From contig JBGPYG010000001.1 of NCBI GenBank assembly GCA_041493085.1, positions 1 through 35,354 on the forward strand: a stretch of 35,354 bases of DNA. Reading direction: 5' to 3'. The notes beneath the pieces are model-generated. The model saw nothing but the letters and a program-made list of their open reading frames with translations. It was not told the origin of the DNA and made no database searches. The stretch's first letter is position 1, and every line of letters begins with the position of its first letter. Positions 29,387-29,956 of the stretch are shown here, in pieces. The translations under genes were made by a program, and so were the position numbers. The DNA comes from Pyrinomonadaceae bacterium. Lineage in GTDB: Bacteria; Acidobacteriota; Blastocatellia; Pyrinomonadales; Pyrinomonadaceae.

Positions 29387-29956
29387 CTAATCGCGGCCCA
29401 CACCTAAGGCATCCGCCACGCGATTTATGTAATTGAACCACGAGGCGATCAGCGTGACCTGAAGTATCGCTTTGTCGTCAAAGCCAACGGACCGCAGGCG
29501 TTGGTGATCGTTTGCCGAGATGCGCGTAGCATCCCGTGTCAACTGCACGACATAGTCGAGCATTACGGCGTCCTGCTCAGAGATGGGTGCAGACTTGTAA
29601 TCCTTTTGTAGTGCCCTTACCAACTCTTCATCCAACGTCACTCGACGCAGAAACTCTGCGTGCGATTCGATTCAATAGTGGCAACGATTTGTTACCGAGA
29701 CTACCGTAGTAATCATCTCGTGTTGCCGTCTGGTTAAAGGCAAGTCGGGCGACATCAGCACGCCGAACGTTGCGAACGCATGATGAAGAGCATCAGGGAT
29801 AAGGCTATGCGAAGCCACAATCTCGGCGGTCTCGTTATCAGCGCTGGGGTGAATCGGCATCGCATACTCAACCGGATACAGAGCACGATGCGCTTCAATA
29901 GCACGCTGCAATTTCTCATCCGCTCCCGGGAGGGTAATAGTCTTGATCCAAGTCAT
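29387..29956 (-). CDS. AhpD/carboxymuconolactone-decarboxylase-family 'peroxidase-related enzyme', candidate selenoprotein (in-frame TGA at 29672-29674)
   Basis: Track ORFs 29672-29956 and 29387-29641 are in the same frame and together make one full-length CMD-family protein. The only interruption is a TGA exactly where the family has the second Cys of its CxxC motif: [10 protein letters not shown][TGA][16 protein letters not shown]-like hairpin follows the TGA. Confidence 0.7.
29642..29665 (-). promoter_or_regulatory. SECIS-like stem-loop immediately downstream of the in-frame UGA
   Basis: The RNA reads UGA-AUCGAA-UCG[C]ACGCAGA-GUU-UCUGCGU-CGA. This gives a 10-bp stem (7 + 3) with one bulged C and an apical loop containing GU. 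The loop G lies 18 nt after the UGA. Confidence 0.6.

Follow-up and report, generated by a model that had tools for sequence, protein, structure and literature searches.

Is the single in-frame TGA of an AhpD-like gene in a soil acidobacterium a genuine stop codon, or is it decoded as selenocysteine (Sec)? We addressed this question in a stretch of 35,354 nucleotides from a Pyrinomonadaceae bacterium (GenBank assembly GCA_041493085.1, contig JBGPYG010000001.1, positions 1 to 35,354; hereafter the window), in which an initial annotation had proposed that the gene is read through as a selenoprotein and is neither a pseudogene nor two small genes. Our results make it very likely that canonical Sec insertion takes place at the UGA, which is codon 95 of the gene. 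Three features, all in window coordinates, define the gene and its predicted active site:

29387..29956, minus strand: complete AhpD-like gene (TIGR01926 / Pfam CMD) of 189 codons, with ATG at 29956-29954, in-frame TGA as codon 95 and TAG stop at 29389-29387
29672..29674, minus strand: UGA codon 95, predicted Sec, in place of the second Cys of CxxCxxxH (from the alignment of homologues)
29660..29683, minus strand: predicted redox motif C92-H-Y-U95-I-E-S-H99 (CxxUxxxH; from the alignment of homologues and PDB proteins)

Translation of the minus strand from 29956 to 29387 gave one frame of 189 codons, in which the TGA at 29674–29672 was the sole internal stop; the read-through product starts with MTWIK and ends with ALGVGRD. 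Two open reading frames (ORFs), one of 94 aa (29672..29956) and one of 84 aa (29387..29641), share this frame. The TGA is found in the context NRC-H-Y-TGA-IESH, in which CxxU is followed by a His at position U+4 (His99), and 159 related loci share this motif. His99 follows the TGA but precedes the GTG at which the 84-aa ORF would begin, and hence it could be translated only via read-through.

With codon 95 modelled as Cys for profile scoring, the read-through product matched TIGR01926, 'peroxidase-related enzyme', at 113.2 bits (cutoff 81.8; residues 47-186) and Pfam CMD at 37.8 bits (cutoff 23), which bears out the proposal that the two same-frame ORFs rebuild one such enzyme. Two other assignments were ruled out: true AhpD (TIGR00777, 23.3 bits against a cutoff of 191.95) and membership in NF041238, the AhpD_rel_CFYUT (seleno)protein family (58 bits against 175, covering only profile positions 152-334). 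Proteins of NF041238 have an architecture of about 357 aa, of which only the C-terminal half aligns to the 189-aa window protein. The score for NF053654, GroundWater_YciW (seleno)protein, was also below its cutoff (37.4 against 310 bits); both NF041238 and NF053654 belong to the same superfamily and have Sec in CxxU as well. In PDB entries 2pfx, 2oyo, 3c1l, 6k40 and 2prr, the motif N-[KR]-C-x-Y-C-x-x-[SA]-H aligned to N-R-C-H-Y-U-I-E-S-H (E = 2e-21 to 1e-14). In 2pfx and 2oyo the second Cys of CxxC fell in the UGA column, as did the Cys of about 45 homologues (see below), in agreement with the earlier claim that the TGA is the only interruption of the gene and falls on the second Cys of CxxC(xxxH). 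Mycobacterium tuberculosis AhpD and the five PDB proteins share the CMD fold (as judged by sequence) and the CxxCxxxH motif with the window protein, but they carry Cys where the window gene has a predicted Sec. Judged by these matches, 29387..29956 is a single gene for a predicted AhpD-like thiol/selenol oxidoreductase of the CMD fold.

A protein search yielded 1110 homologues, the best 120 of which were full length and 65–81% identical to the window protein. Among these best 120, the UGA column was occupied by Cys in about 45 and by 'W' in about 70. The Cys forms, often located on long contigs, had S/T-x-S-H after the Cys, and the 'W' forms, mostly found on JGI contigs of roughly 1 kb, had IESHA after the W. 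For four 'W' proteins the underlying DNA was examined: it contained TGA in both JGI entries (P0002/L002 and P0058/L174) and a true TGG in the two others (P0085/L001 from ENA and P0044/L173 from NCBI). Translation of the P0002 and P0058 DNA under code 11 does not give the deposited proteins, and their 'W' is therefore an artefact of the gene callers, which presumably read TGA as Trp.

At the DNA level, the TGA was found in 80 out of 80 loci of a genome scan, nearly all from metagenome-assembled genomes (MAGs) of Pyrinomonadaceae, Blastocatellia or other Acidobacteriota, with one Gemmatimonadaceae MAG. A metagenome scan, whose query was a Cys-form alignment meant to recover Cys-form DNA, gave 79 TGA loci out of 80 (77 by motif search and two by eye) and one Cys form. 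Thus, the TGA was present in 159 of the 160 loci of both scans combined, a count that takes in only loci that matched the motif search; most of these TGA loci came from Pyrinomonadaceae/Blastocatellia MAGs and soil metagenomes. An identical 94-aa product, followed by the same TGA, is encoded in four more assemblies of this species, which stem from different samples and sources: GCA_041485945.1 (NCBI), two Logan runs and a JGI metagenome. The UGA is conserved across the related loci.

Conservation extended beyond the TGA. The ratio of nonsynonymous to synonymous substitution rates (dN/dS; pairwise Nei–Gojobori) was 0.080 over 50 upstream codons and 0.107 over downstream codons +10..+92. Downstream residues such as W-F-N-Y-I-N-R were invariant and their codons variable, and the ten codons that separate the UGA from the start of the 84-aa ORF at GTG, including the conserved His, were conserved at the protein level in both Cys and TGA forms. 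Alignment of homologues, suggested earlier as a check on recoding, accordingly gave Cys or TGA at the column and a conserved downstream half. By these substitution patterns, the segment downstream of the TGA is under purifying selection and is translated in frame. A separate observation concerns the codons that flank the UGA, which were unusually constrained at synonymous sites: codon -1 (29675-29677) was TAT in 79 of 82 sequences and codon +1 (29669-29671) was ATC in 74 of 82, which suggests a preferred UGA context.

The second line of evidence is a hairpin that immediately follows the UGA and resembles a bacterial Sec insertion sequence (SECIS) element. Its conserved and window-specific parts are as follows:

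29645..29661, minus strand: core SECIS-like stem-loop ACGCAGA-GUU-UCUGCGU, with a 7-bp stem, a 3-nt loop and 17 nt from UGA to loop; codons H-A-E-F-L-R
29642..29665, minus strand: extended hairpin, in the window only, with a lower stem UCG/CGA (3 bp) and a bulged C around the core; -11.6 kcal/mol

The RNA 3' of the UGA reads AUCGAA-UCG-C-ACGCAGA-GUU-UCUGCGU-CGA and has a fold energy of -12.4 kcal/mol over 31 nt (-8.2 kcal/mol for the core hairpin by itself). The hairpin drawn in the initial annotation did fold, with 7 + 3 bp, one bulged C and the loop G as the 18th nucleotide past the UGA, but its lower 3 bp were not conserved among homologues, in which the Ser codon was TCT, TCG or TCC and the Arg codon CGC, CGA or CGG. 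Its position 'ten nucleotides downstream' is correct only when counted from the U of the UGA: 6 nt separate the UGA from the first paired base, and the distance to the conserved 7-bp stem is 10 nt. With regard to the lower stem, Ser codon +3 (29663-29665) and Arg codon +10 (29642-29644) were associated: TCG was accompanied by CGA, CGG, AGG or AGA (35 of 37 distinct sequences), and TCT mostly by CGC. This association may reflect real lower-stem pairing when the G is present, or shared ancestry.

We compared the hairpin with the bacterial SECIS model of PMC13188914, which specifies an apical loop of 3–9 nt (3 nt here, GUU), an upper stem of 4–16 bp (7 bp here), a G at loop position 1 or 2, as a rule with G or U after it (G then U here), a distance of 16–37 nt from UGA to loop (17 nt here) and a minimum free energy of -7.5 kcal/mol or lower (-12.4 kcal/mol here). 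The hairpin conforms to the model on every point. When all 1198 TGA triplets of the window (both strands, all frames) were screened under conditions stricter than these published criteria, only two preceded a Watson–Crick stem with SECIS geometry and 7 bp or more, and the site itself was one of the two. The other was the TGA at 28067 (+), with stem CTGCCCG/CGGGCAG and loop GAATGGT, antisense to a sigma-factor gene (27589-28569); it is probably a chance match. An Rfam scan of the window at gathering thresholds gave no match, a result that is uninformative because, to our knowledge, bacterial SECIS elements are absent from Rfam. The SECIS of Escherichia coli fdhF has a GGUC loop with a bulged U. 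The window hairpin shares with it and with the consensus model a stem-loop inside the coding region after the UGA, a small loop with G then U, and a minimal upper stem-loop at a distance of about 10-11 nt from the UGA; it differs from fdhF in its loop of only 3 nt (GUU) and in the lack of a conserved bulged U in the core.

Among the 82 unique TGA-form sequences, codons +4..+9 (CAC GCA GAG TTT CTG CGT) had essentially zero synonymous variation, and the sole change, GCA→GCG in 3 of the 82, turned an A-U pair into G·U. All other degenerate codons had synonymous entropies of 0.23–2.4 bits, nearly all above 0.7. The frozen block coincided exactly with the 7-bp stem and GUU loop (29645–29661), and the RNAalifold consensus of 28 diverse sequences consisted of the 7-bp core stem only. 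On the other hand, six Cys-form genes carried six different versions of the 17-nt core and kept 2–5 of the 7 Watson–Crick pairs; three of them encoded the identical H-A-E-F-L-R peptide with the core stem absent. As for the TGG variants, the hairpin was retained in L001 and one pair was broken in L173, which looks divergent, as expected after Sec loss, and had lost the pair through CTG→GTG. Since the stem is missing from the Cys forms and broken in L173, the synonymous freeze is specific to TGA-bearing genes. On this comparative pattern, the predicted hairpin is under nucleotide-level selection tied to the TGA.

AhpD-like selenoproteins had already been described, as the initial annotation stated. 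The 'AhpD-like protein (COG2128), CxxU' was first described as a selenoprotein family in 2005, with 27 Sargasso Sea sequences (PMC1088965), and the AhpD-like family was later among the most abundant in the Global Ocean Sampling data (299 sequences of 'AhpD-like 1'; PMC2398784). An AhpD-like selenoprotein is also present in complete genomes (PMC1794560), and a 2026 review lists 'AhpD-like protein, TIGR01926, CxxU' in its table (PMC13188914). The window gene shares with this family the TIGR01926 assignment, CxxU with Sec predicted in place of the second Cys, widespread Cys homologues, and, right after the UGA, a SECIS-like hairpin whose small apical loop contains a G. By its sequence features, the window gene agrees with the AhpD-like TIGR01926 CxxU family in every respect that sequence can address. 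The published cases, compared here by description, come mostly from metagenomic reads of marine origin, with a few from genomes of Firmicutes or Deltaproteobacteria, whereas the gene reported here belongs to soil Acidobacteriota (Pyrinomonadaceae/Blastocatellia, as judged from the closest loci). In genes of the window type, the 17-nt SECIS core is nearly invariant over ~160 loci, and an amino-acid permease is usually found upstream.

In the mechanism that we favor, the 17-nt stem-loop, 10 nt past the UGA, would act as a bacterial SECIS during translation and bring SelB·GTP·Sec-tRNA(Sec) to the ribosome. Sec would then be inserted at the UGA instead of termination, yielding a 189-aa protein with the active site C-x-x-U-x-x-x-H, in which Sec replaces the second Cys of CxxC. 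We infer Sec as the inserted residue, binding of the hairpin by SelB and a redox role of the enzyme from the features described above.

Evidence for Sec use came from a neighboring gene. In ten related loci (L003, where it occupies about 10650-11910 on the strand opposite to the AhpD-like gene, and L005, L018, L019, L027, L055, L075, L097, L126 and L143), a DUF3179 gene (~420 aa, 212 bits with Pfam, N-terminal hydrophobic segment) was located ~0.4-1.2 kb from the AhpD-like gene. It contained an in-frame TGA in the context GGTPICATY-TGA-TLCHTG (UxxC), and a CACACC-GGUCU-GGUGUG hairpin followed this UGA in all eight of the ten loci that contain the UGA region. We take the UGA of TY-UGA-TLC to stand where Cys forms carry Cys, and the GGUCU loop to resemble the SECIS loop of E. 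coli fdhF. DUF3179 (UxxC/T) is listed among the selenoprotein families in PMC13188914, and the adjoining putative selenoprotein gene lends indirect support to Sec use in these organisms. Selenoproteins of Acidobacteria have been on record since 2006 (PMC1794560, Table 2), and PMC12013277 includes a Sec user from this group.

Several observations weigh against Sec insertion. First, searches of the 35-kb window and of ~1.5 Mb of related flanks, which represent a small fraction of each genome, turned up no tRNA-Sec (ARAGORN) and no selA, selB or selD; the SelA, SelB and SelD queries for tblastn were E. coli sequences. Second, the 66-nt fold at the site was no more stable than those of shuffled sequences (z = -0.45); this stability statistic is weak, and the case is therefore carried by comparative data and not by thermodynamics. 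Third, compensatory covariation was absent from the RNAalifold pairs of the 28 sequences, which were invariant or had one-sided changes only. This is due to the invariance of the stem, and the predicted stem-loop is supported through the synonymous-site freeze, not through covarying pairs. Fourth, the rare TGG (Trp) variants L001 and L173 indicate that the position can be lost. Finally, the support for selenium incorporation is at the level of sequence. A lone SelB-like match in the related loci (L060) was rejected, as it looks like a TypA/BipA-type GTPase, judged by sequence alone, and selenium-related genes were absent from the gene annotations of the window.

Among the other explanations, the one that survives best is read-through of the UGA with a residue other than Sec: a selC*-like tRNA could supply Cys, an allo-tRNA acting as opal suppressor could supply another residue, and near-cognate decoding could supply Trp, with the hairpin merely stimulating the event. 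Besides the absence of Sec machinery from the DNA searched and the rare TGG variants, it draws on the report of tRNA-Sec-like allo-tRNAs in Acidobacteria, which are possible nonsense suppressors, and of selC* tRNA-Cys, an opal suppressor in other phyla (PMC5389517). However, the UGA lies exactly at the redox Cys of a catalogued CxxU selenoprotein family (PMC13188914), the hairpin fits SECIS geometry with a loop that starts G-U, and a second selenoprotein family, DUF3179 with its GGUCU loop, adjoins the gene in related loci. Moreover, a Cys product could be attained by TGC or TGT without the cost of recoding, yet the TGA was kept in 159 of 160 loci. We thus consider a non-Sec residue improbable. 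More generally, because Sec machinery was not found in the DNA searched and allo-tRNAs have been reported in Acidobacteria, we considered decoding by any non-canonical route, which includes a suppressor or selC*-type tRNA that inserts Cys or another residue and also a divergent SelB/tRNA pair whose SECIS is specific to the lineage and sequence-specific. Such a pair might explain the near-invariant core over ~160 loci in two phyla, but we give non-canonical decoding as a whole only a slim chance compared with canonical Sec insertion.

A further explanation takes the TGA as a real stop, in a pseudogene or between two small genes, with an incidental hairpin and an 84-aa ORF that is either not translated or translated on its own. 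Public gene callers do split the locus into 94-aa and 84-aa products, and there are signs of local gene decay: the neighboring permease gene is a truncated remnant, and an integrase fragment lies ~3 kb from the AhpD-like gene. A pseudogene is nevertheless hard to reconcile with a TGA shared by 159 of 160 loci of many species, an intact frame and a downstream dN/dS of 0.11. Two separate genes would leave the ten codons before the GTG of the 84-aa ORF, conserved as protein in TGA and Cys forms alike and including the His, outside both products, and a single TIGR01926 or CMD match requires both halves. The comparative data effectively refute this explanation, which we regard as very improbable, and the preference of the initial annotation for Sec recoding over a pseudogene or two genes stands.

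Less probable still is that TGC, TGT or TGG was turned into TGA by an error of sequencing or assembly. Each of these codons is one base away from TGA, and 'W' is found at the UGA column in many database homologues. However, the same TGA occurs in the four further assemblies, where it was unchanged, and in 159 related loci; since these assemblies are independent, sequencing error was rejected. The 'W' in both JGI proteins examined was a translation artefact of TGA, with a true TGG in the other two of the four. The weakest alternative, a genome that uses code 4 or 25 with TGA as Trp, could account for W at the UGA codon in JGI translations, but it is next to impossible and was rejected, because TGA acts as an ordinary stop in the window, where it ends 6 of 16 long ORFs, and the conserved Trp of the AhpD-like gene is TGG in 82 of 82 sequences and never TGA; in addition, a 1948-aa ORF is intact under code 11.

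The selenoprotein family and its mechanism are already known, and what is new is a soil acidobacterial member. With the reading as a selenoprotein, the gene calls recorded in the public collections searched for the window gene and many of its soil relatives would be wrong, being either split into 94 and 84 aa or given Trp at the Sec codon (JGI), and recognition of these proteins as selenoproteins would correct the annotated active site. Pyrinomonadaceae/Blastocatellia, an abundant soil lineage, would join the users of the AhpD-like selenoprotein, with a very strongly conserved SECIS core and frequent adjacency to a DUF3179 selenoprotein gene. The understanding of Sec decoding is unchanged, as both the family and the mechanism are textbook cases.

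The genomic context of the gene in the window includes the following features:

29973..30515, minus strand: C-terminal remnant of an amino-acid permease, residues about 256-436 (tblastn)
6927–10635: molybdenum hydroxylase
window genes: two O-methyltransferases
16197–22043, minus strand: polyketide synthase-like gene of 1948 aa
26638–27009, minus strand: integrase-core fragment of 123 aa
27589–28569: sigma factor of the extracytoplasmic function (ECF) type
31540–32826: ABC1 kinase

The permease is of the APC type; only its C-terminal ~180 residues are left in the window, and the frame upstream of them is full of stops. A permease gene was located directly upstream of the AhpD-like gene in 75 related loci and was intact wherever the flank was long enough. 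In the Cys forms seen (L163), it overlapped the start codon of the AhpD-like gene. The same truncated permease call of 143 aa was found in two independent samples (L168 and L170).

A generic screen of the loci for additional TGA-interrupted genes with hairpins returned mostly off-frame noise, and only DUF3179 and one ORF in L118 looked real. The latter is on the minus strand, is the second AhpD-related ORF of that metagenome contig and has RRNQCVF-TGA-TNAHSA (CxxUxxxH). Its TGA, at 2582 when counted on the reverse complement of the locus (+ strand, about nt 356-358), is followed by the hairpin CUCCGC-GGUC-GCGGAG, with a 6-bp stem, a GGUC loop and a spacing of 17 nt; the ORF may be an NF041238 'CFYUT' member. 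In L165, a 103-aa call similar to T4 deiodinase (PF00837; 4490-4801) was located ~1 kb downstream of a Cys-form AhpD-like gene, on a contig that appeared to be frame-disrupted; deiodinase-like proteins are a known bacterial selenoprotein family. In the window itself, RnfD-like, FG-GAP/ASPIC and DUF1702 genes lie upstream of the polyketide synthase-like gene within 16197-26024 (minus strand), and this region together with the integrase fragment is possibly a secondary-metabolite island with the remnant of a mobile element.

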